Source: a virus
Virus record (IMG/VR): IMGVR_UViG_3300042448_000646
Coordinates: 32,001 to 96,000 of that record
Direction: 5' to 3' (one strand)
Length of the DNA: 64,000 bases
Shown one piece after another: positions 15,207 through 41,802 of the stretch. The first letter of the stretch is position 1. Every line of letters begins with the position of its first letter. The notes beneath the pieces are model-generated. The model did not search any database. It was not told the origin of the DNA and saw only the letters and a list, made by a program, of their open reading frames with translations. The position numbers and the translations under genes are program-made.

Positions 15207-15207
15207 T

Positions 15208-15360: not shown

Positions 15361-15367
15361 TATACTC

Positions 15368-15397
15368 TTGATTTTTATTGACAATAGAGTATATTTG
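15368..15397 (+). promoter_or_regulatory. Bacteroidota sigma-A type promoter
   Basis: TTG(15368)-19 nt-TATATTTG(15390); overlapped by a 14-bp inverted repeat 15392-15422. Confidence 0.7.
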
Positions 15398-15458
15398 CAT
15401 TTAAACTTTTTAAGTGCAAATACACTTAACTTATAAAGTTAATTAATATTTGAAGTTA

Positions 15459-18400: not shown

Positions 18401-18503
18401 TGTTAATCAACTTCAAACAGTCTATGGAGATGGGTTCTCAATTCCAGAAGTAACAGGAACTGAATCCTCTACTTCAAATACCACAACTACTAAAACCAAC
18501 TAA
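15459..18503 (+). CDS. Virion cargo protein (crAss cargo C1-like)
   Basis: About 1014 aa, no Cys; AELERGE...GKKHSQGG...TIVFSDYLK...TFAEEAKK motif. ATG 15459 preferred over TTG 15450. Confidence 0.65.
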   Translation: MNTGKNRVKGLKTELFKKKYQTDPVVTNPSEVVLNAQGSKLRNGQVSKIEGRSLSDMVTDQTKQFEDKLASQQSYFNRYPVQGTAPKQYTPEQIKAMREAFPMSPEDFQTANSYGITGIPDLTAGQGINDFRNQEQVLGATEQLTSTPKSLQNFQDPAFNERVKAASEESLNAKPSFGNNWRTMVNDTDWRNVIRTGTGLVSATKGIYEDVQTRGDINQRIQNLNDKPRYMPNEYEYMGKPGSQSVIYAKDGAMIRRGTDSGAEEAELERGEMFMLPNMDSYVVGGKKHSQGGEDFVLPEGTIVFSDYLKVPGLKTTFAEEAKKFDITKYKETLENLHSKSVDRTTAEVMMGRNTKKLQELFQIQQGINGNSNGEMEPEGIRQGQKGLVSVGSVVAANQPQTASMALTPEQQKEYYHNQGMFDNPSYTYENQVKKAFPEKSSSWKEQDLSIVADEADALTKQIQDRVQAAENNRVAAQATPNPSGTLGANPVTVANSATELVNKTADPSAAGTVTNSNATDPSSMHYKTLPNGKKVFVEGQGEFKGKSYRDQYGGDVFNLVRNRLNEYGETLNPTLLSAYQLQIKDKNLMVKDSNELVDIMESGNHSLDSMRQFYKGIGMEDVLFNPELDRSKDGNEAQKKSAQLFADYVKSPQYLADVKAGKASPYIPWLKTQPKEVKNAKGEVTGYTLDAPEMSQEFTQKYQAAYKAFGAVKQTQKGKSTDMLKGFRIAPEGLSDHMWMGLPISPVDEWGGNTTIGQISAFEDEEPKKPEKPPGTPVKTTDNGNTYNKQLENATMGKYTPEGFDYPQLAPEIYGAAASQMFAYAPMDYNAPYVMPQTLNIQPQLQDVDSSYMAALNAGADPNSALIATLGAKQKLYSEKQNFDGQQRAQVDQINASARWQEDVSDMQSLDKVYNSLIAQADDAVTAQRQALVKSASDKRAVWKMEEARKQFWYNNFVKSFDYDPKTRSMVVKKDASKEFVNQLQTVYGDGFSIPEVTGTESSTSNTTTTKTN

Positions 18504-18509
18504 CAAATT

Positions 18510-20219
18510 ATGGCTATCTCAGCACAACATACACAATTTGTAACTAGTCCTTACGTAAACGCACTCCCCGCAGAAGACCTTATTAAGGTTGCTCTGAAAA
18601 AACAGGAGATGTATGATGAAGGGAAAAAACAAATTAAACAGAACTTAGATAACTATGGAAAGTTACGTAGTAATATCATTAACGAGAACGAACGGAACTA
18701 TTTTGACCAAGAGTTAAATAAAATGGTAAAGAACGTTCAGCAAAATGCTGGCTTAGACTTTTCTAACATGTCAAATGTAGAAGCTGTAATCAACTTAGGT
18801 AAGCCTTTTGAGAATGATAACTACATTAGAACTGCTCTTGACAACGGAGCAGAGTATCAACGTCGTCAGAAAGAATTAGCATCTGTACCTAAAGACAAAA
18901 GGAATGCAGATAATGATTTAGTTTATATGTACGATATCCAAAAGCACATTGAAGGTGGAGGACTTGGGCAAAAGTTACAAAAAAATGCAAGTTACACTCA
19001 GTATGTTGATATCAAAAAGAAGTTAGCAGATATTGAAAAAGATGTACAAGGGGAGATGTCTACTGTCTATCGTCAAGGACCTGCAGGATACATTGAGAAA
19101 GTAGACATAGAAAGAAAAACTAGAGAGCAGATTGCTGCTCGTATTTCTCAAAGTCTTACACCAGACGAACAAGCGCAGATTCAAGTGCATGCACAAGCTC
19201 AAATGTATCGTATGGGTAGTGATGTTGTTTATCAAACATGGGTAGGAGCAAACAAAGAAGAGGCATTAATGGCTGACCAAGAATCAAAGAAAGCAATGTA
19301 TGCTTTAGGAGATTTAAGGAAGATTAAGAATCCAACAGCTCAACAACTTGCAGATATGCAAAATGCTGAAAGAGTTATTAAAGAAGCTCAAGATATTAAA
19401 GCTGCTACTAGAGCTAATATTGACATGGATCCTGATGAGTTTGACATGGGCGAGTATCTTCCTTTCTTTACCAATAGATTCATTTCTGGTATTGCAGGAA
19501 ACCAAGTTAAAGAAGTAATTAAGACTGACTTAAAAGAAGACAAAGTCTACTTAAAGAATATGGAGCATCGTCAAACTATGTCAGAGATATATGCAAGAGG
19601 TGCTGAGGATAGAAAAAATGCTCAGTTTGAAAATGAACTCGAATACATAACACAAAGTGGAGCATCTACCAATCTTCTTAAAGGTATTAGTAAAGTAGTA
19701 ACTAACGTTACTGGAGCTACTGGATCCGATAAAGTAAATAGTATGATTGCTCAAGTTAGAGATAATGCTAAATTAGGTGCTACTGTTAAAGATAGAATGA
19801 CAAGTCAGTTAGAAACTTTAAAAAGAACTTATGAATATGCTGAAGCTAATAAAGATAAAGGATATGTGGTTAGCATCAATCGTAGTCTAGGTAATGGTTA
19901 TGTCACTAGTGTAGAAGATTTCTTATCGTCTGATCCTGTTCAACTTATTGAAAGTGGGGTTGCTAATTCTATCGAAGTACGTGCTAAGACAGCAGGTGGT
20001 AAGTCAGGCAGTAAGACTCCTGAACAAATAGAAGCTGAAGAAGGTGCAAAGACAAGAGGAGACTTAAATGCAAAAGCTAAATTCTTTGAAACCAACCCAG
20101 AGTTAGGTAAAATGCTTTTTGGTAAAACTGGTACTGCTAGTGGAGGAAGTGATAAACCACTGACTGCAGAAGACTTAAAGAACGCAGCTGAAGCAATTAA
20201 AAAGAAAAACGACGGATAA
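18510..20219 (+). CDS. Virion cargo/ejection protein
   Basis: 569 aa, no Cys, helical; N-terminal PYVNALPAE motif; directly precedes the giant cargo genes. Confidence 0.6.
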   Translation: MAISAQHTQFVTSPYVNALPAEDLIKVALKKQEMYDEGKKQIKQNLDNYGKLRSNIINENERNYFDQELNKMVKNVQQNAGLDFSNMSNVEAVINLGKPFENDNYIRTALDNGAEYQRRQKELASVPKDKRNADNDLVYMYDIQKHIEGGGLGQKLQKNASYTQYVDIKKKLADIEKDVQGEMSTVYRQGPAGYIEKVDIERKTREQIAARISQSLTPDEQAQIQVHAQAQMYRMGSDVVYQTWVGANKEEALMADQESKKAMYALGDLRKIKNPTAQQLADMQNAERVIKEAQDIKAATRANIDMDPDEFDMGEYLPFFTNRFISGIAGNQVKEVIKTDLKEDKVYLKNMEHRQTMSEIYARGAEDRKNAQFENELEYITQSGASTNLLKGISKVVTNVTGATGSDKVNSMIAQVRDNAKLGATVKDRMTSQLETLKRTYEYAEANKDKGYVVSINRSLGNGYVTSVEDFLSSDPVQLIESGVANSIEVRAKTAGGKSGSKTPEQIEAEEGAKTRGDLNAKAKFFETNPELGKMLFGKTGTASGGSDKPLTAEDLKNAAEAIKKKNDG

Positions 20220-23200
20220 TGATTTCTCCAGGAACTATACGAGCAGCATCTTTAGTTAGTAAGGGTGTCTCTCCCGAAGCGGCTTTAAGAACTGCTAATA
20301 ATATTGACATCTATACTGAAAATAGAAGAAGTTTTTTGGCTTCTAATCCTAGCACAACTACAGTTACTCCTAATATAAGTATTAATGGTAGTAGTACTAG
20401 TGGAGTTCCAAGTACAGTAGTAAATACTCCAACACCTAGCCCAATGGCCAAAGGAGTATCTCTAGGTAACATAAACTCTTCTCTTAGTAACGTAGCAGTT
20501 AAGGCTAGTAAAGATTTTACAAAAGACGAAGCAGATGCAATAAGTAAATTAGCAGCTAGTGTAGAAAATCCTATTAAAAAGAAAGCAATTGTTTTTGGAG
20601 ACCCTACAGCTTTAATAGATGATCAAGCAACTTCTGAGGGGTTAGCTAAACTTAGCCCTAAACAATTAGGACAACTAGGAGCAAATCTTCAATCTACTTT
20701 ACACCAGAATTACATTGACAATCTTCCTAATGCTTCAAGTAAAATTAATTTTGTTCCTGATCAATACAAGAATAAGAATTACGAGAAAGAATTAATTAAG
20801 AGTTTAGATAAGTTATACATTGACTATAACAGTGGTTTGATGGATTCTCCTACAGTTGCAGGTTTGATGAAGGCAGAACACACTAAAAGATTAAGTAGTT
20901 ACCAAGGACTTGTAAAAGGGTTTACAACTTCAAAAGATTTTAATGGGCTATCAAAGAGCTATGAAGGTTTAATTAGTGAACTAGATCTTCAAGATAAAAA
21001 TGCCACTGATGAATTTGAGAATGCACAAAGACAATACAATCGAGGTAAGTCAGATATAAAACAAACTTCTTTAACTGTTGGGCAAGGTTCTCAAGATTAC
21101 CAAAGAAACAAGAATAAATACAAAGCATTAAAAGAAGAACTATCTAGCGTATATAATAAACGAGCTAATGCTATGTTAGCTAATGAAGTTTTAGACGTAA
21201 TTGATACTAGATATAAAGAAGCTTCAAAGGTTAATCCACAGTTATCTAAAGAAAAGTTTTTTGAGCAACAGCAAAAACAATATGGATTAGATAAGAGTGC
21301 ATTTGGACTTGGTCAGATATTAGTAGAGTCAGGAAGATTTGAAAGCTACCAAGATTATATTCGTTTCACTAATCCTACTAAATATTCTAAAAAGTCAACT
21401 GCATCAGGAAGAGAACAAGGGTTTACATTAGAAGACCCTTTTGTAAAAAATAACACAGAGGCCTTAGACCTTAGTAGATCTTACGAAGGTATGTCTAAAG
21501 TGCAAGGCTATGACCAAACTAGAAATAGAGAAACAGGTAACTATAAATATAACGATACTAAAGATGATCTTATTTTTAGCGGTATTAAGTTTGCTCAATC
21601 AATTTCAGAAGAACTAGACAATAGAACTATTAAGTCAATTAAAGAACGTGAGCAATTAAAATTAAATTACAATAAAAAAGAAATGCTGGGTACGTCTACT
21701 AAAGAAGACAAACAGCAATACGAAACTCGACTAGCAGAGTTAGATAGTCAAGTAGAGTATAGTGATACTTTTAGCAAAACAATTCCAGAAGTATACAAGT
21801 ACGATAAGATAAAAAACAATGAGCTGATAAAAAGTTTTGCGGAAGATCGTAGATTGTTTTTAGATAAACAAAAAAATTGGAATGACTTAAAGAATGCTCC
21901 CGTACAAACTGCTTGGTATGAAGATGTAGCCTTAAGTATGATGGTTGGAAACTTTAGTACAACTCAAACAGGAGCTTATTGGAATGAACTTGGTAATCGA
22001 GTATGGGGGAAATCACTTGGTATGGGTGCTGACATTGCAAAGTTTACTGACCAAACATTATTAAATGAAACGTTAGGAGTTCCTAAGAGTGCTAGTTATA
22101 ACGATAGAAACCAATTCTATAATTATATGAGGCAACGTTTAGATGTTCCTGAAGTAATTGATGAACGGGCAAGTTTAATGGCAGGCAAGCCCATTAGAAG
22201 TACAACAATCTTTTGGACAGATCCAGCAGCAAGTTGGTACAATCCTACGGGTTGGAATTTTAGTTGGAAAGGTACTTTAATGACAGGAGCTGAAACCTTA
22301 CCACAACTATATGCTTTCTCAGGAGCAGGTAGAATAGCACAGAATTTAGGAGGAGGTTTTTTAAAAGCTGGATTAACTAGCGGGATTACTGCTTCATTAC
22401 TAGGGGAAGCTAATGCTGCTAGGTTTGCATTGACCTTACAAAAGACAGGAAATACAGCTGCTGCTTGGAGTAATACATTTAGAAACAGTAACAATGTTTT
22501 TTTAAAAGAAGCATTGGCAGATCGTATTCCTTCTGCTTTAGGTATGGCTACAGTAATGTATCCAGAACAATATAATAGAACTTTAGAAAGATTAGAAATG
22601 CAAGGGGTTAAAAATGCACGTAGCATTGCAACCAATGTAGCTTTGCTAAGTACAGGTATTGAACTTATTGCTGAGAATATTATTCCTAACATTAGATACC
22701 TAGATGACTTTGCTGAAAAAGGAACTGGGTTTAAAAGTCTTTTAGGAAAAGCAGGAGCAAAAAGTTGGATAGGTAACTTTGACCAATACCGTGCATTGTA
22801 CTCTGGAGTACTTGGAGATAAGTTTTCAGAGAAGTCAATTAATTATTTAGCTCGTAACTCTGCAGAACTCTTTGGTAAAGTAGGAGCAGCAGGTAGATTC
22901 TATGCGTCACGTGGGGCAGAGGAAGGTACAGAAGAAGTATTTTCAGAACTTGTTAATGGTGTAATTGATGCTAAGACTAGTTATGCTAATTACAGACAGG
23001 AAGCCCCCAATGAATTAAGTTTTGATAGTATTGTAAATGCTTTTGCTGGAGGATTCTTTGTTCCTTCTGCAGGTGCTAGTAATCAGATGAAAATATACAC
23101 TGAGAATAAAAAATATTCTGCAATGTATGACATGATGATTAACTCGGATTACTACAAGAACAAAATCAATACAGCATTCAAAGCAGGTGAGATTAATCAG

Positions 23201-26200
23201 GAACAGGCTACTAACATGTTAAGTAGGATTCAAGATTTAGTTTCAGTTGCAGATGAGTTTGGTGTACAAAATTTAAAGAGACGCCCTGATGCTGCTAAAT
23301 TTACTGCTGACTTAGTTAATGATGAGGATAAACAGTTTGATTATTTTAAACAAGTACTTAAGGTAAGAGGTATTGAAGAAAAGTTTGGTAAGGACAATGC
23401 TGTTATAAAAGATGAAGAACGCAATGCATTACTTGCTGAGTCTGGAGAAGCGACTAAAAGAATTGATAAGTATAAAAGACAAGTGTCAGTATTTGAGAGT
23501 ATGTCTGATGATCAAAAGACTCAGATAGTCAATGACACTATTGCAGCTAAAGTTCAGACTGCTAAGTTTTCATCTACTACACAAATATTATCTGAGTCTA
23601 TCGAGAACGCAGACAATCAACTTGCACGTGCTATTCAACAGAAAGCTCCAGAGACTCGCATTAGTGCTCTAAAAGAATATCGTAATGCTTTAATACAAGT
23701 TTCTGAAGATAGAGCATCTGGAAAACAAATTGCTTTAGATAGAGGAACTTATAATCCCGTTATCAATGCTGTCACTTCTACAGGAGAAGCAGCGCCTTTA
23801 GATTTGTCAGAAGTAAGGACGGGAGAAGATGCTATAGATGTAGTAGTACAATCCATGTTAGATCCTGAAAATGGTATGGATATGTATTATCATATTACAG
23901 GACAAACCCAACAAAGTTTAGAGCAAGTAAAACAAGATAAAGAAAATCTTATTGATAATTTCTTAGATTACTTAGAGCAAACTGAAGGAGGAGCTACTGT
24001 TGATAATACAAGAGAAAGTACAACTACTACTGCTGATAGCGCTGCAGAGAGAGTTAAGTATAAAACTATTTCAGATTTGAACGATTCTCAAAAAGATATG
24101 TTTGAGGATTTAGCAGAAAGAATAGACGATGAACTGTCTGACCTACAAACAAAAGTAGAAAAGTATGATTCTGTTTTAACTCAAGTTTTACAGCATGGGG
24201 CTCTCAATGCGAATATGTCACTAGAACAACAAGAGAAGTTTAGTGATCTTATATTTAAAAAGTTTGCAGCAGTTAAAAAAGTTGGGTTTAAGACTAGCCA
24301 AGATAGAGGTTCAGAATTATTTGACCTACAAGATTTTGGTTTATACTTAGGAAGAAATCAAAAAGAAATTGAGAAAGCATCAAATGAGATTGATGCCGCA
24401 GTTAAGAAAGAAGAAAATGCCCAACAAATTCAAAGAGAAGAAATATCTTTAGATGGTTTGGGAAATGTAGATGCTATTGAAGAACTAACAGTTCCAGAAC
24501 TTACTCCAGAAGACATTACTGATTCTTTTACTAGTAACTTAAGTCTACTAGAAAGTATAGTAGAGCAGCAACAAGTAGAAGTTGTAGAGAATCAAATTAC
24601 AGGAGAAGTAGATACTTTGGTTGATTTGCCTAAAGAACGTTCTAGAATCATTAGTGCTTTAATAACAGAGATGGCAATGAATCCTGATATCAAAGGAGCT
24701 CAAGCTATGATGGCTGCAGTAATGCAAGTCTTAGGTAAATCTAATCAAGAGATTGCAAAGACTTTATCTCAGATGGCAGAGATAGCAGAAAACAAACCAG
24801 TCAATGAATCCGATTATACGCATATGTTTAATCTGTATCAATTGGCTCGTATGACTGAGAATGTTCCTGCAAGTACTGAAGCAATTGAAAATGCGGCTGA
24901 GGATTTAACTACAGTAGAACCTGTTGTTGTAGATCCGATTATAGAACCTATAGTTGAAGTTATTCCAACACCTGTTGTTACGCCTCCTGCTACAGAGAAT
25001 CAAAAAGATGAGTTAGCAGATAAGACACAAATATCTTCTACTACTCCTATGTTTAGACCTACTAGTAAAAAAGACTCTATTAATCTTGTTAGTTACGAGA
25101 TACAAGAAGCAATTATTTTTGGATTAAACAAAGAGATTAGAGACAAGAAAGATGTAAACACCGCCATAGTAGATTTATTTACTATGATAGATGAAGTTCT
25201 TGGAGAAGAAACTCTTGCAGGTTTAGAAAAAGTTTTTAATGAAGCTGTTAGTTTGGCTGTAGGAGAACAGAAGTTACAAGAGTTACGTGCAGAATTTATG
25301 TCTTTGTTTCCTAACGGATTCTTAAGACAAAGTGTATTGGACTATATGTTTGATCAGATTATTGTTAACAAAGCTGCTCAGTCTGATATTACGGAAAAAG
25401 GAAAAGAAAAACTAGATGCCAGTGATGAAGAACTAATTGCTCTTAACAAAAACAGAGCAGTATCAATTGAGATGGCAGATGGGCGTAAGTTTGCTAAAGT
25501 TAAAGTAGTAAGTAAAGATGGAATATTGTTATATGCAGTAGAGGAAGGGAAGGAAGATGGCAAAACACTTTGGTTAAAAGTAGATAGAACTAAAGACAAA
25601 ATCATTGGACTTAAGTATCCTATCTTAGGAACTAGACCTATTCAATTTACTGACTTAAATGCTTTGTTGTTTACTGTACTTGATAATAATGGCAATGTGC
25701 AGAAGTACGGAGAGGACGGGAACAGAAATGAATCAGGAGATAAATCTCTAGCATTTTATTTGCCTACTGCTAAATATAAAGCAGAACCTACAGAAACGCA
25801 GAAACAGTTTAGCGGGCTAAGACAAAAGATAGTAGCTGGAGACAGAGTAAAAGTAAGTGCTCCTGTAAAAGGTATGTCTGTAAGTAAAGGAGTAGTTACT
25901 ATTGAACAACCTGATGGTTCTACTATAACTAAGAATACAGACTATGCACTTGAGTTTAGTACTGAGAACCTATCTATAAAGGAACAAGCCCCAAGTGAAG
26001 CTACTCAATTTGCTCAAGCTAAAGAAGCAAAAGTTATAAGTGAGAACATCCCACCGACACAAGCAACTACAATTGCTGCTGTTGAGAAAATGATTGCTGA
26101 TTCTAAAAAGATTCCTGATCCAAGTAAAGAAGGTTATCTTATTAATGGTAAACGTTATGAAAGACAATCTAATTTTGTTAAACGAGCCTTAGGAGATACT

Positions 26201-27154: not shown

Positions 27155-27157
27155 AAG

Positions 27158-33100: not shown

Positions 33101-34723
33101 ACTTCTATGAGTGACTTTAACACTACTAATTATAGAACTTCTTTCCAATCTGAAGAATTATTAACAGCTAGTAGCAAACTAAAGAATAACTTTAACGCAG
33201 AAGCTATTGACTTTATGTTTAAAGACTCTGCCTTAGCACAGTTTAATGTAGGTAATCTTGTTCAACAAACTATGAGACAGATTTATCCTCTATCAGATTC
33301 TAAAGAAGTCCATTCAGATATTTATACCTTTATGGAGAGGAAAGGATTGTTCAAAGAAGAGGAAAAGATGCTAGCGATTCAAAGTTACAAGAACAATATA
33401 CTAGTCCCTTATGTTCTACTAAACGCCCAAACGCCAGAGAAAGGAAACTTACTAGACTACTATAGAGGTAAGAAAGGAATATTTGTAAGAACAACTGCTA
33501 ATAATATGGCAGAAAGATTCCAGAAATTATTACAGAATCCAGAAATGAGAAACAACTTTGTCATGACTAACATCTACATAGATGTAGAGAATCAAGGCAA
33601 AGAGATTGAGTTTAAACTAAAGAACACTGATGTAGATGAGAACAGCAAAAGTTATAGAATTGCTTTCTTAGAAGGTTTAAACAGCCCTAATGCAGAAGTT
33701 AAAAGTTTCTTTGAAGACTTAGGTATGGGTTCTTACTTGCAGTACGCAGGTTCATTTGCATCTGGTCATGTATCTACTATTGTGCCTCACGAAGTTTATG
33801 TGAGCTATACTACAAATGCTTTCAACAAGCTAACAGAACTTAAAGATACCGATAGTCCTAAGTTTGAGGCTTACTTAAGTTTAGTTAGATTCTCTACTAA
33901 AATGGCTCTTGAGACTGCGGGACCTATCAAAGGTTCAAGTACATTCTTTGTAGATAACTATGGGGAGATGGCTAAGACCATTACTGGATTAAGCCCAGAA
34001 GTACTTAAGGTATATAAGAACAGAGAAAACCTCACCTCAGGTAAAGTAGAACCTGTGCAGCAATCTACTGCAGTTAATTCTTTAGTAGAGGCAGGAGTTA
34101 AGCCTACTGATATGGCAGGTAATGCTGCTAAAGATATACAGATGGCTTCTGAGTCTACTCAGTTTATTGGCTTCCAATCAGGAACTGCTACAGTAAGTTC
34201 TACCAATAAATACAAAGAAGCTTGGGGAAATAAAGCAAACACAGGAAACTACACAGCAAATGATGTAGTGATGGTTTCAGGTAGTGGTTTATTTAGGGGA
34301 GTTACTGAAGCTCAGATAAAAGAAACTTTAACTAATCAATACAAACCTTTGTTAGAACAGGCTATTGCTGCTGGTGCTTCTTTTAGAGTAGGTAATCAAT
34401 ATGCTAAAGGAAATCTTTCCGATCAGTTAATTGCTCAGTATCTAAAAACTAAAGGATATCAAGAAGAGAAATTTGATGGGTATTCTAGATGGACTCCTGA
34501 AGTTACTGAAACAAGTCAACAGACTCAAGCAGAAGTTATAGAAAACTTTGAAGAAGATTCTGATGTTACGGATACCAATGTGCCCAATACTCCGACACAG
34601 TTTCCTCCAACGAAAACAGATGCCATTCAACTTACCTTAAAGTTAGACCCTGATCAGAAAGATGATGATAAGGGTAACTTAGATGACTTAGGGTTTGAAG
34701 AAGATACCTGTGAGATAGTTTAA
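27158..34723 (+). CDS. Virion-associated DNA-dependent RNA polymerase (crAss-like single-chain two-barrel RNAP)
   Basis: 2521 aa; GVRIPVQG...LPAQIVVKSGGDYDIDKL (DxDxD at 31733-31747), FPPLK, LHKYS, SGSK, TQMMKL and HVDIAKE motifs of the phi14:2 gp66 type. Confidence 0.92.
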   Translation: MNACSIKGTSYEKEYRQILSEPAMIFVWNANNEQPLDKKKVGNEVIENPLYTALLNHPVTKGERQNALKLVAQSFLPAFTREYTPNEEGDYSLEQVVSYIEKRQKQAQDQREQLKSSINLPTSMAINIPDGVINETARQIFFSEEQGQDIYDTLQYLLGVKKSWDGVYSELVNQRNTILGRVKAGQHFSEDPERLAYNEILVQNFDKIKSWYDSKEGLVGEAELESQFGDSEDWKSKDKSQAQRASSVILGLVTSLPAYRTAIPGEIDFETGEEYQEVTQVQVQSNVTGLPKSGDFQKNWSLLGSTLSGMTNYSDMYEAIESLASRYPQFSYLLSKIPNAKIPGSFKDIRQFLLASEFKRVFSVPEVSSVVVDVTLKEDGKIATTQQLKGFQPVRNAVALYDSQYFSYNQKYLVKGLEGNEVNLEGILEDFQALFNDLGSALAKKVPMQNFLFPTRVDKFVQFLQSVGLGLNNQEYLKSTNVNGTKEFIQANLDKLKTLYEKLKIVSIVNEYLVDDAKIKVDKPLSFLRDTIQDIYVSKGKVRPDVEAALAQAFADNKLRYKGGVPQAIGYLGIKKTEIKPFITFFTQYDAEFRPSSYMNAADKKKFVRGPWFYLTQQTKVINAVGSYDELINIPGFERFDYRKNPDILGSLWLQRMFGLPRTKNAIEASPLATYVRKKDTLGNPIELNIANFDGMEIKNFGAKSGRTTTDQHPNDKIFQDFASFFQSLEMENIRFGDKTSAFTVRASNPILSEKIYVALNAAEMITPTERVEAEKDLTNLFNGYLASEATRIIKLIEETGRGTTYDRLGKNLFIFNDILPEETLNKFKNATSKEEVIAAYTEATSMMSSVLQDYFAQESQKLVDKLLDTFSTSVNIKTGQEVTQAQRLKQTVEKLNKLNLISTQLLPSELRDNPPKITVENLPYLAEIYLKNGFVHNVEFLKMFVGDLSNFNKTNIDAREIFKRIPFTSSPGNVFFWDEAAQEFFDNDTNQDALSIAYTGVANKFSPILKTVVYNDVNTFSTESYEEYKKVYDTDDSWDALTENEKSEFSAYVNKSDEEANAQGVITLDSYRNYLLGINRWSSEQEQAYNKQIRLVKINQELRNNPTNAEELYKEKNEIVENFGSALFPPLKLGHYGAIVEDPKLIALHKYSLIPLIPSAIEGKALEKQLELMYRNKINYYTFKSGSKMAQYGESIDFYKEVTNEQGEKVLVVNDALGENNVTSIHLENLREQQYQAPKFKTQATLATQMMKLVFGDFFENGEISSDFSEGTQRQIQSLYDSFKNNINDLVTFETVKLERKLGIKRNEAREIVGVDQLQMARFFAEELENKEAPDALRRFIQVNEDGTFKYPLDAINNRNQLESLVLNVINNKVISQKINGESYIQVAGTGFEAKRYVKPTAEQLKEFGANDLQFYTRDPITGETLPMEVKVGFNVKKHGGLLNLQYGKGKVETLKQLNKILGSKAPLDVAWKKKHMDKLTMVGVRIPVQGFSQMEYAIVKEFLPETVGAIMVLPAQIVVKSGGDYDIDKLTFFETAYDNKGETYKKEFNIKDYESKLEKQKELKKTKQELIALTELIEKEIADNDIFRERESLKKEINEIQKEIKEAKELVEDFLDSGFLTKEDATWAREAASDKEDLQRAFADLDSFDNANDVRVLQTMSLIKNKLRELSQEVASIDAYKKSLSNNLVDTLKGVLMQGELYNALITPNTNSVLTQYTTPGEKISTTAVFSPLTSWRIYMENILSKDALGIDAKINTLQKEFQRAGLKITGSLLKKYYFESNKDSEGNILLGGKKDARGENRISKVLSEFINGHVDIAKEDWIILLGLDAETSPLAHAMILTGTPVEQVLGLINSPIIKTVFQLGNRPEIQKKLDNIRPNKKKAILGLIKNRLTKVTDPEVKALIDAAQLGISNLKVKSTNSITDTFVNNLLVNPRFNKHIGNFNPKESLSEEEAAIRDLAYLMQFYVVVRQQDSLRELTSMSDFNTTNYRTSFQSEELLTASSKLKNNFNAEAIDFMFKDSALAQFNVGNLVQQTMRQIYPLSDSKEVHSDIYTFMERKGLFKEEEKMLAIQSYKNNILVPYVLLNAQTPEKGNLLDYYRGKKGIFVRTTANNMAERFQKLLQNPEMRNNFVMTNIYIDVENQGKEIEFKLKNTDVDENSKSYRIAFLEGLNSPNAEVKSFFEDLGMGSYLQYAGSFASGHVSTIVPHEVYVSYTTNAFNKLTELKDTDSPKFEAYLSLVRFSTKMALETAGPIKGSSTFFVDNYGEMAKTITGLSPEVLKVYKNRENLTSGKVEPVQQSTAVNSLVEAGVKPTDMAGNAAKDIQMASESTQFIGFQSGTATVSSTNKYKEAWGNKANTGNYTANDVVMVSGSGLFRGVTEAQIKETLTNQYKPLLEQAIAAGASFRVGNQYAKGNLSDQLIAQYLKTKGYQEEKFDGYSRWTPEVTETSQQTQAEVIENFEEDSDVTDTNVPNTPTQFPPTKTDAIQLTLKLDPDQKDDDKGNLDDLGFEEDTCEIV

Positions 34724-34753
34724 CTTACAAAGTGAAGGGGTGCAAGTCTTTAC

Positions 34754-34783
34754 TTGCATTCCTTGTTATTTCGATTAAATTTG
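34754..34783 (+). promoter_or_regulatory. Bacteroidota sigma-A type promoter overlapped by a hairpin
   Basis: TTG(34754)-19 nt-TAAATTTG(34776); hairpin aaggggtgcaagt-cttt-acttgcattcctt (34735-34764). Confidence 0.7.
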
Positions 34784-34809
34784 TATAACTAATAATACAA
34801 CATTCTACA

Positions 34810-37800
34810 ATGTCTTGTTTTGCAAAAATAAAATCTCCACTCAACGGTAAAACTATAACTAGTCCTGCCTACTACCAATTAACATCATTTTTTCCACCTG
34901 CTGAAGGGAGAAGAATATATGAGGCTACTACCACTATTAGTTTTAAAACCGAAATTGGTTTTGATTGGACTAAACGTCAACAAGGATACAGCCCTAAGCT
35001 AAACTTTGCTGGGGAGCCTACTTTAGATCAAATCAATACACACCTTAGACTAAACTTAAACCCACGGGAGATTAGGGCAGGAGAGCAAATGGATGAGGTA
35101 GCAAGTCTAGGTTACTTAAACAAAGGTTATGCTAATCCAAATGCTTTTAACCTAATCACCAATGAGATTAACTTAAACCCCAAGTACAGTTTAATAGAGA
35201 GTGAGGTATTAGCAAGAGACGGCAAGTATTATCTGTCAGTTAAACCAGCTATCTCTGCACAGACCGCCTTAGAGTTTAAGCAGAGCTCAGACAAACGTAG
35301 TACAGAGAGTGACAATATCAAGTTTACAAAAGATTCTGTTGTTGCAGATGCGAATGGAAATCCTATTGTAGTATACAATAATACAAACGAACCTGCAACT
35401 AGATTTACAGAAGGCAGACCTACAGGTTTATTCTTTACTCCGAATGTTGAAATGTTTTCTGAGTATGGTGCTACTAAGTATGGAGCAGTTTTAAATATCA
35501 AAAATCCGTACTACGCTGCTAGTAATGCTATAAGAAAAGAAACAGACATACAAAAGTTAAAAGATGCTGGTTACGATGGTGTTATAACTCATCCTGAATA
35601 TAAATTTGATAGATATATATCTAATATACAAAATGAAGATGCTGCTATAGATGATTATATTAAAAATCAGAATGTCAATGATAATACCAAAGGCAAGGAC
35701 AATAGAGATGCATTAGATTTATCTAAAGCTCTTGAGTTTATTGCTTTTGATTCTAGTCAAGTAAAAGTAATTAATTCGGCAGATAATAAATCTCTTTCAA
35801 CAGCTGCCGCTGCAAAGTCTGTAAAACCTGTAAGTAAAGATTATTTAAGAACAGTAAAGTTTCCTGATATGATTGTTAATAATGTTGCGGATTTTTCCAA
35901 TGCAGGATTAATAGAGTTGATGGATAACTTACTTAAGAACAAAGAGTTACCTCCTTTCCAACATAAGATGTTAGAAAGACTGCGTAATTTAATGAAGATA
36001 AATCCAACACTCAAACTTGCAGTATTCGATGATGCTGAAGTAGACGAAGAGTTCCAAAGGTCTTTTTACGACCCGAAGAGTAACACCATATACATTGGTA
36101 AAACAGTAACATCAGAATTTAATAAAGAGTCATTTGCTCGGGAGTTAATTCACGAAGCAGTACACGCTTACACGATATCAGCTTTAACCAATCCAGTAAC
36201 TGCAGAAGAAATTAAATTTAGACAGGAGATGGAGAAATACATCTCTGAATATAAATCTAAATTTCCTAGACTACAGCACCACTACGGCTTTAAGAATGTT
36301 GAAGAGTTTGTGTCAGAGTATCTCTCTAATCCCTACTTTAGAAACGATCTACAAGAAGCAGAGAGAACAAATAAAGACAAAACATTTGTAGGACGTGTTA
36401 CAGAAAACATAAAGAGATTCTTAAAGAATGTATTAGGTTTAGGAGATACCTTGTTTGATAGAGTTAATCAAACAGTAGATGATTACTTTGACTATCTGGA
36501 TAATCTAGAAGATATGCCAGACTTAGCAGGTGAACATGAACTAAGATTTAACCAACCATATGCAGCACAACCTTTAAACCCACTTAGTGTTAACTTAAGT
36601 CAGTTCCAACAGTATGTTGATAGTACTTTTAATAGTTCTAGTTGGAAACAACTAAGTCAGGGGTTGTCTGAGATTGACCCACGTTTTGCTTCTATTGAAA
36701 GAATCAGAGAAAAATTTGGTAATATATCAAGTGCATCCTTAGCAAGTACTATTAAATCTTCTATTGATTATTTAGTAGCAATAGAGCAGTTAGTAGATAG
36801 AGTTATTAAAGATGTTGACTTACATAGAAATAACTTAGGATATTATAGTTCAGAAGATGCTGTATCAGTGTTTAACCATGCAATACACATAGCTGACTTT
36901 GTTCAAGAACAGATGGCTGCTTACAATCAGTATCTAATGCCTCAGTTGAGGATGGAACAAACAAAGACTGACTTAGATATAAATCCTATAGGAGCTGCAG
37001 AGTTTAGACAAGAACGCAGAAGTCAAGTAGAGAACTTTGATATTGTTTCTCAAGAGTTAATTGCCAAGCTTAAAAACATTTCTGATAGATCAAACAGTTT
37101 GAGAAATGAAGCTAAGTCTTCTATCTTAGCTCCAGTAGCTTCTCAATTAAGTGAGCCTTTTAGATTAATTGCTGCTCAGTTAAAAGAGCCAAACAGTCAG
37201 TTGAATCAAGAGATTGATGCCAAAGAAAAGTTATACAACCAAGCTTTAGCAAACAACCAGACTAAGAAAGCAGCTGATATGTTAAAGGACTTGAGTCAGC
37301 TTAGGATGTTTAGAGATTGGGTTCCTACTCAACAAAACATTATTAAGTTACTTCAAACTGGTATGAACCCTCAATACACGGGTGCTAACTTCTTTACTAT
37401 TTACTTGGGAGTTGCTAACATGACAGGCAGTCCTTTGGTTCAGGTAGTTAAAGAATACTTAGACGTACACTTAACTGAGGCGGGTAACAAGAGTCTTGAG
37501 TATACTAACAGAGCTAAAAAATTATTTGATAAAGTTGAAGCCAGAAATAAAAAGCAAGGTATTCGTTGGACACAAAGTATAGACAACTTTTACAAGAATT
37601 TAACTCGTGAAGTTGATATGGTTTACTATGACGCCAATGGTGTTCGTAAAGTAGTAAAACAACTTGCTTATAATACAAAGTTTAAAGAGGCTGAGTTTAG
37701 AAATGATTTGCAGGAGTTAAAAAGAAATGTAGACTCGGCTAAAAAAGGAGGAGTAGAAGCAGAAATAATAGAGGCTCAAGAAAAATTACAAAAGTTCCTA

Positions 37801-40800
37801 GATGATTACGCAGTACGCCCTTACACAGACGAGTATTACGAAGCAGAAGACTTATTAATTTCAGAAGCTAGAGAAGCTCGTACAGACTTACTAGACCAAC
37901 TAGAAGAACACCAGGCTGTCTTTGGAGATGCAGAGGCTAGTCAAGAAGAAAGAAAGCATAGAACAGAGTTAAGAAGAGCTTATGAAAGACTAGGTTCTAT
38001 TTATAATGAGGATGGTACGGAGAAACCTAAAGGGACTAAGGAAAGAAACATTGCAGATTCTATTATTGCTTACAAGAATAAACGTAAAGCATTAGAAGCC
38101 ATTGAATTTGTAATCCCAGATAAAGTTAAAGTACGTTTTGAGATTGAGAAGAACTCACGTAAACAAAAAGTAGCTGACTTAGAACGTAAAATTAGTATCT
38201 TAAATACAGACATTGCAGATGAGATTGCCCTTGGTCAGGATGTTACTACTAAACAAAATGAGTTAGTAGATATAACAGCACAATTAGAAGTAGCTAAAAA
38301 CGAGTTAAACAAGTGGTTAAACGCTAACACTCGTACTGAGATTGACCCTGAGTTTTTTGAATTACAAAGAAGCATTGCAGATAAAATCAAAAACATCTTC
38401 CTTAAGTATGGAGAAGACCCTTTGTTGAGTGAGGCATATGATGAACTCTTTAATTCAGTTAAAGGGTACAGAGACCAGGATGGTATTATAGTAGGTAGCC
38501 AAATTCAAAGAGGGTTAGGACAAACTATTAGAGACTTAGAGACAAAGATTGAAAAACTTAAAGAGGACGCAGAAGAAAATAGACAGATATCTGACCAAGA
38601 TAAAGAAACTCTAAAAGTTCTATTCAAACAGATCAGCGATATTCAAACTAAAGAAACTACCGAATACTACGTAGAGCAGTACAACAGTGTTGCTCGTGCC
38701 GCTAGGGTAGACTTATATGCAGATGCTCAACAAGTAATAGAGATTAAAGCACTTGCGGAGAAATTAGCAGATCAGTATATTGAGAATGAAGGTTTAGTTG
38801 ATGAAGATTTAGAGCTAGACGATAACTTACCTGTCTTAAATCATCCTTCTGAGTTTGGTACAGATAAACATAGGAATGATCTGGTATCTTCCTATGAGAA
38901 TATGATTACTGAGTTGCGTTTGCAACAAAGAATCAAAGAGAGTGATTGGTATAAAGCAAACCATATCTCCATTAAGAAGAGTTACACGGACAAGAAATCA
39001 GGAAAAAAGATAGTTAAAGTTTACGAAAGACCTATTTATATCTGGAACCGTACTATTCCTCGTAACGCTGCTTATATAAAACAAGAGAATCCAAACTTTG
39101 ATTGGGCAGTACCTAGAGTTAGAGATGAATATAAAAACAAAGATTACAACTTCTTAGGGTCCGCTAGACCTAGACAAACTACAGACAATAAATACACCAA
39201 CGAAGTTTACACTAAATCACTTCAAGACGATAAAGATATTGCTGATGAGATGGTAGGTCTTTACGAGGACATACAAAGAAACCTACCAGTATCACAACGT
39301 CTTGAAGGTTATGTTGTTCCTAACAAGACTAGAGATGCTAAAGAAAATATAACTGATATGTACACCAATCCTTTGGCTAGATTCAAAGGTTGGGTAGATG
39401 GTTGGAAACTTATCTTTAAACCAGGTTTAGCAGGGGAAGATCAGTATGAAGATGAAATATCTAGTTTAGTTGATTCAGAAGACAAACAGAAGATAGCAAA
39501 ATCAAACAGAAAAGTACAGTTAATTAAAACTAGATACAAAGAACCTTTAAATACAAATCAAGTATCTCGTGTATTGGTTCAGTCACTTGCTGAGTATGGT
39601 GCATATGCTTCTGAATTTGCAGGGTTAAAGAAAGCAATGCCTGCAGTATTTGCGGCTAGAGAGGCTGCTTTAGGTACAAACATACCTGATGGAGATGTTC
39701 AGATGCTTGATAACGAGATTCAAAGATTTTTTTATGGAGGCGAAGTAAGCAACACTAGTTTGGGAGATAACCCATACATGAAAGCTACTATGCGTGCTAT
39801 GAGAAGAGTTTTTAGATTTAGTCAGAGTCGAGTATTGTTATTTAACTTTCTACGTGTATTCAAAAACATCTTTAACAACTTTCTTAAAATTGTCTTAAGT
39901 AAAAATAAATATGGGTTAACCCGAAAAGAATTACTTAGAGCGTGGTGGAAAGGCTTAACTATGAGGCGAAGCTTAGTTTCACTCGAGATAGGATCTAAGC
40001 AACATAGTGAGTATGCATTAAAACTAGTTCACTTCAGAGCATTGCCTGCTGCAGATCCAACTAAACTAGCTACAAACGTACACCAGACAAGTATTTATAA
40101 GTATGCTAATGCTGAGAATTTTAGTGGACAGATATTTGGATACATGGAGATGGCTTCTACTCTACCCATCTATGAGGCATTGATTGCTCGTTTAGACGTA
40201 CCTATTGTAATTAACGGTCAACAAACTAGAGTTAATCTAAGTGATGCTTATGAAGTAATTGACGGTATCCTTGTTCCAAAAGAAGGAGTATTTGGATTAG
40301 AGTTAAACGCAATGCGTTCTTTAATAGAAGACAGAAAGCAAATCATATCAACGTTTTTAGCCCAAGAAGGAGTCTCTACTATAGAAAATCTAAGCAGTGC
40401 GCAAAAGACAAAATTAAAAGGACTATTAACCTCAATAGACGTAAAAATTAATAGTTTAGAAAAAGTAAACTCAGTAAAGCAAGAAAAGTTAAGACTAGTA
40501 GAACAACAGTTAAGAGATCAAATTCACGAATTATACACTAGTACTCAAGGTAACTACTACGGAAGGTCTCGTTCTGCTTATGAGAAGAATCTCTTTGCAA
40601 GTGTGGTGATGTCTATGAGACGCTGGTTAGCTCCTAACCTCCAGACAAACTTTGGACAACGTAGACTTTCTTTGTATACAGGTAATCTAGAGGGGGGATT
40701 TTACGCAGAAGGTGGAAAATCCTTACTTAGAAAAATGCGATACTTAGTTGCAGGAGAAAGAATGGACTTGGGAAGTACTGAATTTGAGAAAGAAAAACAT

Positions 40801-41802
40801 CAAAGAATATTCAGAGATACTTTAAACGTAGTAGGACTACATGCTATCTCATTAGGATTAACTTCACTTTTATTTATGGGATTAGGAGGGGGAGGAGATG
40901 ACGACCCTTCTAAGTTGCTATCAATTTTAGCTATTATCTCCTTAGGTACATATGATGAAGCAATTAGCTTACATCCATTACTTGCTCCTTCTAACTGGAT
41001 TTATAAAACATTCTTTAGACAACCTTTAGCAAGACCAGGAGATGAAGAAGGAGGTGCTAGTAGTGCAGTAAGACATGGACTCTATGCTTTATTTGGACCT
41101 CAGATGAGAAGTTTTGACCAAATCTTTGAAGCTATTTTTGATGTAAGAAATATCACAGACCCATTTGAACCTTACTACGAACAAAGAAGAGACATGGGAG
41201 GTAACAGTATTGTTAATACCCCTGCTCCTACTAGAGGATTACCTAGAGTACTTGCAATGGCTATGAAATACTATGGAGTAGAGTCAGGTTTAAAACCATT
41301 CTATGCACCTAGAAAAAGAGTTATGGATATGTTAAAGCTTAATCCAATGTTAGGAATGCAAGATCCTTTGGGAGATTATGTACAGATTCAACAAAAAATA
41401 TCTGGTTTGCAAAAAGAAATTTTAGCGAGAGACCCTCAAGACAATGTCTACTTCATGGAAGGAGAATGGGATAAAATGTCCAAGCCTAACGTAGAAGAGA
41501 TGAAATCTAAAGTTGCTGAGTGGGGAGTTCTTAAAGTAGAAAAGATGATGATGGAATCTACAAACCCAGTTATTGAGGCTGCTAAGATGGAAAAAGACAT
41601 TAGTGCTTATGAAGGTTCTCAAGATGTAAAACAAATAGAATTTATGTTACAGGACTTTTACGATGTCAAGTTACCTAAAGCTCCTAAGAATGAACAGACT
41701 GAATTTTATAAATCAGTAGAGAAAGCATTTCAAAAGAATAGACGTAGCACTATTCAGAAAAGTTTTGAGCAACTACAACAAAGCCAGATGTCTCCAGACT
41801 AA
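34810..41802 (+). CDS. Giant ejected polyvalent protein C with ART-like domain, zincin metalloprotease and C-terminal hydrophobic helices
   Basis: 2330 aa; VADANGNPIVVY...GLFFT...VLNIKNP...LKDAGYDGVI...FIAFDSSQVK; ELIHEAVHAYT...EEFVSEYLSNP; hydrophobic segment near 40820-40950. Confidence 0.8.
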   Translation: MSCFAKIKSPLNGKTITSPAYYQLTSFFPPAEGRRIYEATTTISFKTEIGFDWTKRQQGYSPKLNFAGEPTLDQINTHLRLNLNPREIRAGEQMDEVASLGYLNKGYANPNAFNLITNEINLNPKYSLIESEVLARDGKYYLSVKPAISAQTALEFKQSSDKRSTESDNIKFTKDSVVADANGNPIVVYNNTNEPATRFTEGRPTGLFFTPNVEMFSEYGATKYGAVLNIKNPYYAASNAIRKETDIQKLKDAGYDGVITHPEYKFDRYISNIQNEDAAIDDYIKNQNVNDNTKGKDNRDALDLSKALEFIAFDSSQVKVINSADNKSLSTAAAAKSVKPVSKDYLRTVKFPDMIVNNVADFSNAGLIELMDNLLKNKELPPFQHKMLERLRNLMKINPTLKLAVFDDAEVDEEFQRSFYDPKSNTIYIGKTVTSEFNKESFARELIHEAVHAYTISALTNPVTAEEIKFRQEMEKYISEYKSKFPRLQHHYGFKNVEEFVSEYLSNPYFRNDLQEAERTNKDKTFVGRVTENIKRFLKNVLGLGDTLFDRVNQTVDDYFDYLDNLEDMPDLAGEHELRFNQPYAAQPLNPLSVNLSQFQQYVDSTFNSSSWKQLSQGLSEIDPRFASIERIREKFGNISSASLASTIKSSIDYLVAIEQLVDRVIKDVDLHRNNLGYYSSEDAVSVFNHAIHIADFVQEQMAAYNQYLMPQLRMEQTKTDLDINPIGAAEFRQERRSQVENFDIVSQELIAKLKNISDRSNSLRNEAKSSILAPVASQLSEPFRLIAAQLKEPNSQLNQEIDAKEKLYNQALANNQTKKAADMLKDLSQLRMFRDWVPTQQNIIKLLQTGMNPQYTGANFFTIYLGVANMTGSPLVQVVKEYLDVHLTEAGNKSLEYTNRAKKLFDKVEARNKKQGIRWTQSIDNFYKNLTREVDMVYYDANGVRKVVKQLAYNTKFKEAEFRNDLQELKRNVDSAKKGGVEAEIIEAQEKLQKFLDDYAVRPYTDEYYEAEDLLISEAREARTDLLDQLEEHQAVFGDAEASQEERKHRTELRRAYERLGSIYNEDGTEKPKGTKERNIADSIIAYKNKRKALEAIEFVIPDKVKVRFEIEKNSRKQKVADLERKISILNTDIADEIALGQDVTTKQNELVDITAQLEVAKNELNKWLNANTRTEIDPEFFELQRSIADKIKNIFLKYGEDPLLSEAYDELFNSVKGYRDQDGIIVGSQIQRGLGQTIRDLETKIEKLKEDAEENRQISDQDKETLKVLFKQISDIQTKETTEYYVEQYNSVARAARVDLYADAQQVIEIKALAEKLADQYIENEGLVDEDLELDDNLPVLNHPSEFGTDKHRNDLVSSYENMITELRLQQRIKESDWYKANHISIKKSYTDKKSGKKIVKVYERPIYIWNRTIPRNAAYIKQENPNFDWAVPRVRDEYKNKDYNFLGSARPRQTTDNKYTNEVYTKSLQDDKDIADEMVGLYEDIQRNLPVSQRLEGYVVPNKTRDAKENITDMYTNPLARFKGWVDGWKLIFKPGLAGEDQYEDEISSLVDSEDKQKIAKSNRKVQLIKTRYKEPLNTNQVSRVLVQSLAEYGAYASEFAGLKKAMPAVFAAREAALGTNIPDGDVQMLDNEIQRFFYGGEVSNTSLGDNPYMKATMRAMRRVFRFSQSRVLLFNFLRVFKNIFNNFLKIVLSKNKYGLTRKELLRAWWKGLTMRRSLVSLEIGSKQHSEYALKLVHFRALPAADPTKLATNVHQTSIYKYANAENFSGQIFGYMEMASTLPIYEALIARLDVPIVINGQQTRVNLSDAYEVIDGILVPKEGVFGLELNAMRSLIEDRKQIISTFLAQEGVSTIENLSSAQKTKLKGLLTSIDVKINSLEKVNSVKQEKLRLVEQQLRDQIHELYTSTQGNYYGRSRSAYEKNLFASVVMSMRRWLAPNLQTNFGQRRLSLYTGNLEGGFYAEGGKSLLRKMRYLVAGERMDLGSTEFEKEKHQRIFRDTLNVVGLHAISLGLTSLLFMGLGGGGDDDPSKLLSILAIISLGTYDEAISLHPLLAPSNWIYKTFFRQPLARPGDEEGGASSAVRHGLYALFGPQMRSFDQIFEAIFDVRNITDPFEPYYEQRRDMGGNSIVNTPAPTRGLPRVLAMAMKYYGVESGLKPFYAPRKRVMDMLKLNPMLGMQDPLGDYVQIQQKISGLQKEILARDPQDNVYFMEGEWDKMSKPNVEEMKSKVAEWGVLKVEKMMMESTNPVIEAAKMEKDISAYEGSQDVKQIEFMLQDFYDVKLPKAPKNEQTEFYKSVEKAFQKNRRSTIQKSFEQLQQSQMSPD

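Follow-up and report, generated by a model that had tools for sequence, protein, structure and literature searches.

Paired terminal cysteines at the boundaries of three giant cargo proteins of a crAss-like phage suggest a disulfide-linked chain

The window analyzed in this study is a stretch of 64,000 nucleotides (positions 32,001 to 96,000) of the IMG/VR virus record IMGVR_UViG_3300042448_000646, a 121,956-bp genome of a crAss-like phage. It carries three giant genes, designated A, B and C, of which B encodes a virion RNA polymerase. The placement of the few cysteines (Cys) in the three proteins, together with a weakly supported structural model and the analogy to a cyanopodophage, makes it likely that A, B and C are joined end to end in the virion by disulfides between their terminal Cys. 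Since these Cys occur only in pairs across protein breaks and never at the outer ends of the set, a head-to-tail disulfide would be the simplest account of the pattern. The genes and positions on which the analysis centers are listed below, with lengths in amino acids (aa).

20219..27154, + strand: gene A, 2311 aa, 256.0 kDa; sole Cys at residue 2310; in the position of phi14:2 g067; proposed first link
27146..27148, + strand: codon (TGT) of Cys 2310, the next-to-last residue of A; proposed partner is Cys 4 of B
27158..34723, + strand: gene B, virion RNA polymerase, 2521 aa, 285.1 kDa; Cys at both ends; proposed middle link
31733..31747, + strand: catalytic DxDxD motif (DYDID) of the two-barrel RNA polymerase, residues 1526-1530 of B
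34810..41802, + strand: gene C, 2330 aa, 266.8 kDa; counterpart of phi14:2 g065; proposed last link

Cysteine content and identity of the giant proteins

Only four of the 7162 residues of A, B and C are Cys, namely A-2310, B-4, B-2518 and C-3, which lie in the terminal contexts ...DALNPPPCQ of A, MNAC and ...EEDTCEIV of B and MSC of C and are all encoded by TGT (codons at 27146, 27167, 34709 and 34816). This recount agreed exactly, in residues as well as codon positions, with an earlier note on this DNA, and the translations also bore out its remark that A lacks an N-terminal and C a C-terminal Cys. With random placement, the probability that all four Cys fall at most four residues from one of the six termini is 9.7e-11, and at the mean Cys content of ordinary open reading frames (ORFs), which is 1.76% for 51 ORFs taken from the window and from related loci, the three proteins should contain over 100 Cys. 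The tails of A and B, described before as acidic and rich in Pro, contain 11 acidic residues (Asp plus Glu) and six Pro in the last 60 residues of A and 18 and five, respectively, in those of B, and are thus acidic and moderately Pro-rich. The summed mass of 807.9 kDa likewise matches the roughly 800 kDa that had been estimated for a chain of the three proteins.

On sequence grounds, the locus containing B is a Crassvirales virion RNA polymerase module of the phi14:2 g067-g066-g065 type. Residues 917-1555 of B aligned with phi14:2 gp66 (23% identity, E 2e-11), the three Asp of the DxDxD motif were invariant in an alignment of B with phi14:2, LMMB, Kolpuevirus and FPSV-S29, and residues 420-547 of C matched phi14:2 g065 (33% identity, E 3e-12). 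The gene order A-polymerase-C, located 3' of a large virion structural protein and small cargo genes, is that of the phi14:2-type module. Comparison of A with phages by tblastn returned only one weak match and no detectable similarity to g067, so that the orthology of A and g067 rests on position only. According to the annotation of the phi14:2 record the three counterpart proteins were detected in virions by mass spectrometry, and counterparts of A, B and C were found by the same method in crAss001 virions (PMC10172136). By analogy with the phi14:2 counterparts, A, B and C are most likely packaged cargo proteins.

Conservation of the terminal cysteine pairs

In eight close IMG/VR loci (98% to 48% identity to B) every visible A end, B start, B end and C start carried a Cys, including the A tail in all seven loci with a visible A end, and internal Cys were absent. 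The wider set comprised the best 80 of 451 relatives obtained in an alignment search with the polymerase core (94% to 24% identity), four of which are the same contigs as in the close set; it forms 52 clusters at a core identity of at least 80%, and individual loci are referred to by numbers preceded by L. The first ATG was taken as the start of a protein, a head Cys was defined as one in the first eight residues and a tail Cys as one in the last 25. At the boundary between the polymerase and the next protein, Cys were present on both sides in 74 of 74 cases (47/47 cluster representatives), and at the boundary between the previous protein and the polymerase both Cys were present in 30 of the 32 unfused forms (17/19 representatives). 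Boundaries with just one Cys were not encountered among the 80 loci. The two exceptions, L052 and L079, have neither Cys, and in both the downstream frame is open already before the upstream stop; as judged from the sequence, these Cys-less breaks are likely frameshifts. Close relatives of L079 are fused forms, and Rfam at the gathering score detected no intron in L052, L079 or the broken C gene of L029. The latter (L029 14606-16146) consists of a 204-aa piece with a type-II head (see below), a gap of about 900 nt and a 1760-aa piece without Cys.

Head Cys were located at positions 3-6, and the polymerase tail Cys lay one to three residues from the end in 38 of the 48 representative tails. None of the 16 complete unfused A proteins had a head Cys, and all nine 'next' proteins equipped with a tail Cys precede another protein with a head Cys. 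In total, the giant low-Cys proteins of the 52 representatives contained 128 terminal versus 35 internal Cys in 293,157 residues, with terminal Cys encoded by TGT 58 times and TGC 11 times in tails and by TGT 57 times and TGC 11 times in heads. Conservation and junction matching of the terminal Cys, on which the earlier note had made its proposal depend, therefore held from 98% to about 24% polymerase-core identity.

The pair rule was also obeyed by all ten named phages sampled (phi14:2, FPSV-S29, crAssphage LMMB, Kolpuevirus 'frurule', cr60_1, cr4_1, cr85_1, cr53_1, cr108_1 and cr106_1), which span Steigviridae, Intestiviridae, Suoliviridae and Fipvunavirus. In phi14:2, g067 has its sole Cys at 1797, the final residue, g066 carries Cys 3 and 2179, and g065 carries Cys 3. 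In Kolpuevirus, cr85_1 and cr106_1 the A gene is found on the opposite strand, and its sole Cys is still three to four residues from the end. A nucleotide-level junction signal was rejected, given that A can lie on the opposite strand, that B and C can be as much as about 700 nt apart and that either Cys codon occurs.

These counts also bear on the view that the Cys have no pairing function and were purged from the interior while being tolerated at disordered termini. Suppression of Cys in ejected proteins is indeed known for Schitoviridae, according to the available part of the report (PMC11445570), but tolerance would not yield two-sided Cys at 74 of 74 boundaries, nor would it leave the outer termini and four upstream cargo ORFs without Cys, and it cannot explain the invariant Cys columns in the head and tail alignments or the coordinated absence of Cys in fusions described below. 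Mere tolerance is thus already strongly disfavored and in our estimate hardly tenable.

Protein trans-splicing by a split intein was considered and rejected. A split intein places an N-fragment of about 100 residues that starts with Cys on the upstream protein and a C-fragment in front of a Cys, Ser or Thr of the downstream protein. Pfam searches of A, B and C identified neither an intein nor a Hint domain, and a tail Cys one to four residues from the end, as in the window and in 42 of the 48 representative polymerase tails, leaves no room for an intein fragment.

Cysteines in fused and further divided forms

Where neighboring genes are fused, the Cys pair is missing. The A-polymerase fusion of FPSV-S29 (4419 aa) has its only Cys at residue 4418 and is followed by a protein beginning with MAC, and the polymerase-C fusion of LMMB begins with MSC, has no tail Cys and is preceded by a protein ending in ...SFSCM. 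Among the A-B fusions found in 37 IMG/VR loci a head Cys was present in one (L048), which is split elsewhere along the protein and whose upstream piece ends in ...KKC. The split form of L066 (A Cys 1524, B Cys 5) runs colinear with the A-B fusion of L061, whose 3902 aa include Cys 3890 only, and neither the fused named phages nor L061 have a Cys at the fusion point. Searches (hmmsearch) with hidden Markov models (HMMs) of both head families against the proteins of at least 1000 aa in the window and the 52 representatives returned no internal match; the fused forms are too distant for this search to be informative, and the colinear pair L066/L061 was used instead.

Additional breaks were accompanied by additional Cys. 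Protein X (170-216 aa), encoded between B and C in L005, L015, L019, L021, L022 and L023, carries Cys 4 or 5 as well as a Cys three to four residues from its end. In L039 the ART-PolyVal domain forms a free-standing protein of 328 aa with Cys 3 and 325, in L038 C is cut in two around a GIY-YIG endonuclease gene, with the first half ending in ...DRVC and the second beginning with MATC, and further double-ended links were present in L045, L050 and L058. The polymerase gene of cr108_1 is broken inside DxDxD by a group I intron (RF00028, 80 bits, E 9.6e-21), and neither side of this break has a Cys. Absence of the pair in fusions and its gain at extra splits is the pattern predicted by a linear A-B-C chain. 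The linear chain proposed in the earlier note accordingly gained support from pairs at breaks and their absence at fusions, whereas a docking domain common to B and C was not supported, as detailed in the following section.

Several observations concern the same genes. The endonuclease gene of L038 (17642-18289) encodes a free-standing GIY-YIG plus NUMOD3 homing endonuclease of 215 aa with three Cys between the C halves; mobile endonucleases may be what splits the giant cargo genes. In cr108_1 (L099 17310-17628, MT774385.1) the motif is divided into ...GSD / YDIDK..., and the record shows two hypothetical proteins. In the cargo module of L045, the polymerase and a double-ended link of 258 aa are separated by an ORF for a ferritin-like or rubrerythrin-like protein (14585-15061, 158 aa, PF00210, E 1.5e-16). 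One clade of fused forms (L058, L067, L068, L070, L078, L081, L082, L086 and L093) has a recurrent single internal Cys about 370 residues past the start of the polymerase-core match, e.g., Cys 3192 with the core starting at 2821. Polymerase length varies widely among near-identical phages: that of L001 (6549-14867), at 98% identity, has 2773 aa, compared to 2686 aa in L002 and 2521 aa in the window. The 86-nt gap between B and C of the window (34724-34809) contains an inverted repeat (gtgcaagt...acttgcat), and the same interval spans 550-710 nt and encodes protein X in close relatives. The idea that B of the window is a fusion of B and X was rejected, as only its last 45 or so residues, and not the body of X, are homologous to X.

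Head domains, tail peptides and a model of the second junction

The N-terminal head domains and the C-terminal tail peptide that would meet at the junctions were delimited as follows.

27158..27517, + strand: head of B, about 120 residues, type-I; Cys 4 (codon 27167-27169) in the N-terminal coil before the first helix
34810..35259, + strand: head of C, 150 residues, type-II; Cys 3 (codon 34816-34818) before the first strand
34586..34720, + strand: tail peptide of B, roughly the final 45 residues (...LTLKLDPDQKDDDKGNLDDLGFEEDTCEIV); Cys 2518 encoded at 34709-34711; putative docking partner of the C head

The earlier note had regarded the small domains at the start of B and C as similar. This likeness was not recovered when 13 heads of each kind were compared by hhalign (probability 0.2%, E 0.25), and the predicted folds differ in the order of their secondary-structure elements. 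By sequence, there are at least two portable head families that are unrelated to each other. In the type-I alignment M1, C4, W28, L36 and A67 were invariant, and the model of the B head (predicted local distance difference test score (pLDDT) of about 90 for residues 11-110) consists largely of helices plus one hairpin, whereas M1, C3, S18, W53 and E69 were invariant in the type-II alignment and the model of the C head (pLDDT 90.8) is mixed alpha/beta.

Head type was independent of the position in the chain. The type-I HMM matched the C heads of cr4_1, cr53_1 and cr60_1 (E 9e-24 to 7e-14), while the type-II HMM matched residues 1-68 of the phi14:2 polymerase gp66 (E 7.4e-10). Among 48,161 PDB representatives the best structural match of the C-head model was to residues 3-95 of 6vr4_B, which is phi14:2 gp66 (Z 7.3, root-mean-square deviation 3.0, 76 residues aligned), with the next match at Z 4.8; a Z of about 7 is middling on its own but agrees with the sequence match to gp66. 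Foldseek against the PDB gave no match at E <= 0.001 for either head, and no A4- or T7-type ejection protein was among the 50 matches listed in the wide fold search of the C head, a result that does not exclude such proteins.

The tail of B shares homology with that of protein X in L005, L015, L019 and L021, and F52 and C57 (counted in the last 60 residues) were invariant in 12 tails carried by either B or X. When the 76 paired boundaries of the window and the 52 representatives were tallied, uncorrected for shared ancestry, a tail of the form F-x(3-5)-C preceded 15 of 17 type-II heads, none of 17 type-I heads and five of 42 other heads. The carrier of this tail can be B, X or an A-B fusion, and L039 and L042, which diverge past B residue 2604, nevertheless have their last 22 residues in common before the same C head. 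On this sequence evidence, the type of tail goes with the following head and not with the carrier protein.

A complex prediction of the B tail with the C head, as envisaged in the earlier note, was run with the 150-aa C head (13-row alignment) and the last 60 aa of B (12-row alignment). It scored 0.42 (0.42, 0.38 and 0.42 in the three runs) compared to 0.01 for the best of three controls, and the runs shared at least 90% of their contacts. The mark for such complexes is reached by 58 of 80 solved complexes and two of 110 mismatched pairs, and scores above the mark and up to 0.60 were obtained for seven of the 80 solved complexes and both of the passing mismatches; custom alignments were used here, and these benchmark counts are approximate. 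The prediction lends weak support to docking of the B tail on the C head, with no interface reported.

The same alignments bear on the chemistry of the junction. Instead of forming a disulfide, the junction Cys could share a metal ion, an option already mentioned in the earlier note, or be joined by other covalent chemistry such as a thioether, and sequence alone cannot separate a disulfide from a bis-thiolate site. However, each partner contributes one Cys per junction, and the invariant columns (M, C, W, L and A in type-I heads, M, C, S, W and E in type-II heads, P, F and C in tails) include no other invariant metal ligand adjoining it. Moreover, an identical signature in cyanopodophage A4 was resolved as a disulfide by electron cryo-microscopy (cryo-EM), according to the available part of that report (PMC12002296). 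We regard metal sharing or thioether chemistry as quite improbable.

Relation to known ejection and cargo proteins

Linkage of ejection proteins by terminal Cys has a precedent. In the virion of cyanopodophage A4, as described in the available part of the cryo-EM study (PNAS 2025, PMC12002296), the C-terminal helix of gp27 is inserted in a cleft of gp26, and the two proteins of the pre-ejectosome are connected by a Cys1715-Cys5 disulfide. In the sequences of this phage (Anabaena phage A-4L), gp27 (1717 aa) has its sole Cys at 1715 (...DNPCQF) and gp26 (1114 aa) its sole Cys at 5 (MSKHC...). The statement of the earlier note that no description of such a mechanism was known can therefore not be upheld, as a head-to-tail disulfide between ejection proteins is published in that study. 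Like the window, A4 has consecutive giant ejection genes with a tail-tip Cys upstream and a Cys within the first six residues downstream; unlike the window, it has a single link, two proteins, a fivefold ring and no RNA polymerase, and the bond is presented in the available part of the paper as a structural detail, without a rule tied to gene fusion or splitting (PMC12002296). Neither hmmsearch of A-4L gp26-gp29 with the head and tail HMMs nor blastp against the window proteins gave a significant match. With no sequence homology found to the A4 proteins, the crAss-like module is considered an analogue and not a family member. A full-text literature search, with subscription journals and supplements outside its scope, found no paper on terminal cysteines or a disulfide chain in crAss-like cargo. 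The disulfide between ejection proteins as such is thus already known from A4, and the new part would be the pair rule of crAss-like phages, tied by sequence comparison to fusion and splitting.

The gp67-gp66-gp65 proteins of phi14:2 share gene order and Cys pattern with the window, but phi14:2 carries the type-II head on the polymerase, while the window carries it on C and has a type-I head on the polymerase. In the available part of the preprint on the phi14:2 polymerase structure (PDB 6VR4; bioRxiv 10.1101/2020.03.07.982082) the words 'cysteine', 'Cys' and 'disulfide' occur 0 times. The same part mentions that some phages encode the three proteins as a fusion and that the polyprotein is probably cleaved into its components (10.1101/2020.03.07.982082). 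Fused polyprotein forms, found here in FPSV-S29, LMMB, cr60_1, cr4_1, cr53_1, cr108_1 and the 37 IMG/VR loci, have the same domains in the same order, with peptide bonds in place of the proposed disulfides. The sequence pattern suggests an opposite logic to polyprotein cleavage, in which split forms are re-joined.

The crAss001 virion contains the cargo proteins gp45, gp46, gp47, gp49 and gp50, of which gp47, gp49 and gp50 belong to the same module as A, B and C, and disulfides are present in its tail and portal vertex (PMC10172136). In Schitoviridae, the ejection proteins (N4 gp50-gp52, DEV gp71-gp73) have virtually no Cys, and the few that occur are taken as probable errors in the available part of the report (PMC11445570); this confirms in print what the earlier note had stated about N4-type ejected proteins. 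As in the window, a giant virion RNA polymerase is ejected and Cys is strongly suppressed throughout the ejection operon. The differences are that terminal Cys pairs are not reported in the available part of that paper, where the polymerase is one polypeptide of 3400-3500 aa (PMC11445570), while terminal Cys are conserved in the window. Classification of the window as a Schitoviridae (N4-like) operon was rejected in view of its conserved terminal Cys and phi14:2-type polymerase. Polyvalent proteins, described by Iyer and colleagues in 2017, are reportedly giant proteins of many domains that phages and conjugative elements deliver together with their DNA. They share the ART-PolyVal domain with C; unlike in polyvalent proteins, domains of the crAss-like cargo can be separate polypeptides with Cys at both ends, such as the 328-aa link of L039, which would make the cargo a modular chain and not a single polypeptide.

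Proposed chain and points that weigh against it

In the reading that we favor, the interior of the cargo proteins would be kept free of Cys, and each terminus facing a neighbor would hold a single Cys. The short C-terminal tail peptide would dock on the N-terminal head of the next protein and be locked there by a disulfide, with A-2310/B-4 and B-2518/C-3 forming in the virion, and because the two junctions differ in head and tail type, A-B-C would be the resulting order. The product would resemble a polyprotein, as a chain of about 808 kDa that corresponds to the fused single polypeptides of relatives; since split and fused forms are interchangeable, the continuous chain would be what matters. 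Such a chain could fix the order and stoichiometry of packaging and ejection, the placement of Cys at the extreme termini could let the joint pass a narrow channel, and the links could be reduced in the host cytoplasm. We infer that this chain would have a 1:1:1 stoichiometry, would be threaded through the tail and would be released by reduction.

More tentatively, the same principle might amount to a modular coupling code in Crassvirales and relatives, in which heads of at least two families capture matching tails and are locked by disulfides, the cargo is ejected as an unfolded thread and reduction releases it. It is conceivable, though doubtful at present, that cargo and effector modules (polymerase, ADP-ribosyltransferase, protease) are strung in defined order and in any number in such a threading model. 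Fusion, splitting by homing endonucleases and swapping of heads between positions might, as an equally speculative extension, be its evolutionary moves.

Several points weigh against a disulfide-linked chain. Its support consists of the sequence pattern and one weak fold, in which the tail peptide has a pLDDT of about 50 (at least 49) and no interface is reported. The ten named phages were hand-picked from 72 matching records and the 80 loci are those nearest to the query alignment, so that neither sample is random, and the windows of eight and 25 residues for head and tail Cys were picked after the data had been viewed. The interior is not always Cys-free, as up to seven internal Cys are tolerated in gut relatives, and L029-L038 with their relatives form one clade whose A-tail Cys is 19-24 residues away from the end, which weakens the argument that the joint is a minimal stub. 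The cytoplasm in which phages assemble is reducing, and gut crassviruses live under anaerobic conditions. No thioredoxin, glutaredoxin or DsbA that might form or cleave the bonds was found to be encoded in the 121,956-bp genome. The available part of the crAss001 atlas uses 'cysteine' 0 times, uses 'disulfide' for tail and portal vertex only and leaves the cargo unresolved (PMC10172136). Finally, an 861-aa protein of LMMB (L011 5639-8224), encoded two genes 5' of A, has its sole Cys at 860 (...QSCR), and the two proteins that follow it lack a head Cys, making this an orphan terminal Cys.

The A-tail Cys distant from the end would also suit the view that the disulfides only stabilize a static cargo or pre-ejectosome inside the capsid, without threading as one chain. 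This view draws on A4 as well, where, in the available part of the study (PMC12002296), the bond stabilizes the insertion of a helix into a cleft, within a fivefold ring located above the portal. Against it, 37 loci encode fused polypeptides of 3600-5000 aa instead of the split forms, so that ejection would at least tolerate a continuous chain, and in most representative polymerase tails (38 of 48) the Cys is found one to three residues from the end. We consider a purely static assembly unlikely, although it deserves serious consideration.

The orphan Cys of LMMB, which exists without a partner in its neighborhood, fits better with terminal Cys that bind the portal, the capsid, a host factor or another copy of their own protein, or that become cross-linked only after ejection, in the oxidizing periplasm, where disulfide-forming enzymes are present according to the available part of PMC11445570. 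Such other partners would not account for Cys that are paired at 74/74 and 30/32 boundaries, absent together at two and single at none, for outer chain ends that are bare (0/16 A heads), for tail-Cys 'next' proteins that precede a head-Cys protein in nine of nine cases or for tails whose type tracks the following head, and we judge them improbable. Head-to-tail disulfides between A, B and C thus remain our favored explanation of the terminal Cys.

Genomic context of the module

Further features of the window were the following.

6415-12009, + strand: virion structural protein, 1864 aa, with 32 Cys; matches virion structural PHROGs
12388..20219, + strand: four consecutive Cys-free ORFs (411, 528, 1014/1017 and 569 aa), 0 Cys in each
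35347..35778, + strand: ART-PolyVal domain (ADP-ribosyltransferase of polyvalent proteins) of C, PF18760

A 125-aa ORF with one Cys lies between the 1864-aa structural protein and the Cys-free ORFs. Among the latter, the second alone has a PHROG match, of unknown function. By analogy of position with gp45 and gp46 of crAss001 (PMC10172136) the four Cys-free ORFs (12388-20219) probably encode further cargo or ejection proteins; lacking terminal Cys, they would not be covalent links of the chain. In many loci a homologue of the 569-aa ORF (MAISAQHT...) is kept on the 5' side of A or of its fusion with B. The ART-PolyVal domain was identified at residues 180-323 of C (PF18760, E 1.8e-07, 32.5 bits with a cut-off of 31.2), while PHROGs and Pfam searches gave names to hardly anything in A, B or the ORFs 5' of them, and Rfam detected no RNA family within positions 12000-43000 of the window. 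Located 3' of C in several relatives (L057 19171, L067 20175, L077 18816, L078 18904, L086 20313 and L090 18670) is a Cys-rich family beginning with M..(L/I/V)C.A.PCPVILN..CVFYEG, whose head Cys stands outside the chain rule.

Implications

At stake is how nearly a megadalton of protein, including the polymerase that starts the infection, is packed and injected. The order-wide sequence rule, with one Cys pair per real protein break and none at fusions or intron-healed breaks, leads to a directly testable model in which the cargo would be a disulfide-linked chain equivalent to a polyprotein. For annotation, the rule helps to tell true protein boundaries apart from frameshifts and introns and to identify neighboring ORFs of the injected set. 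Effector domains such as ART-PolyVal can join the set as separate links. Together with these findings, the single disulfide of A4 suggests itself as one case of a wider podophage principle.

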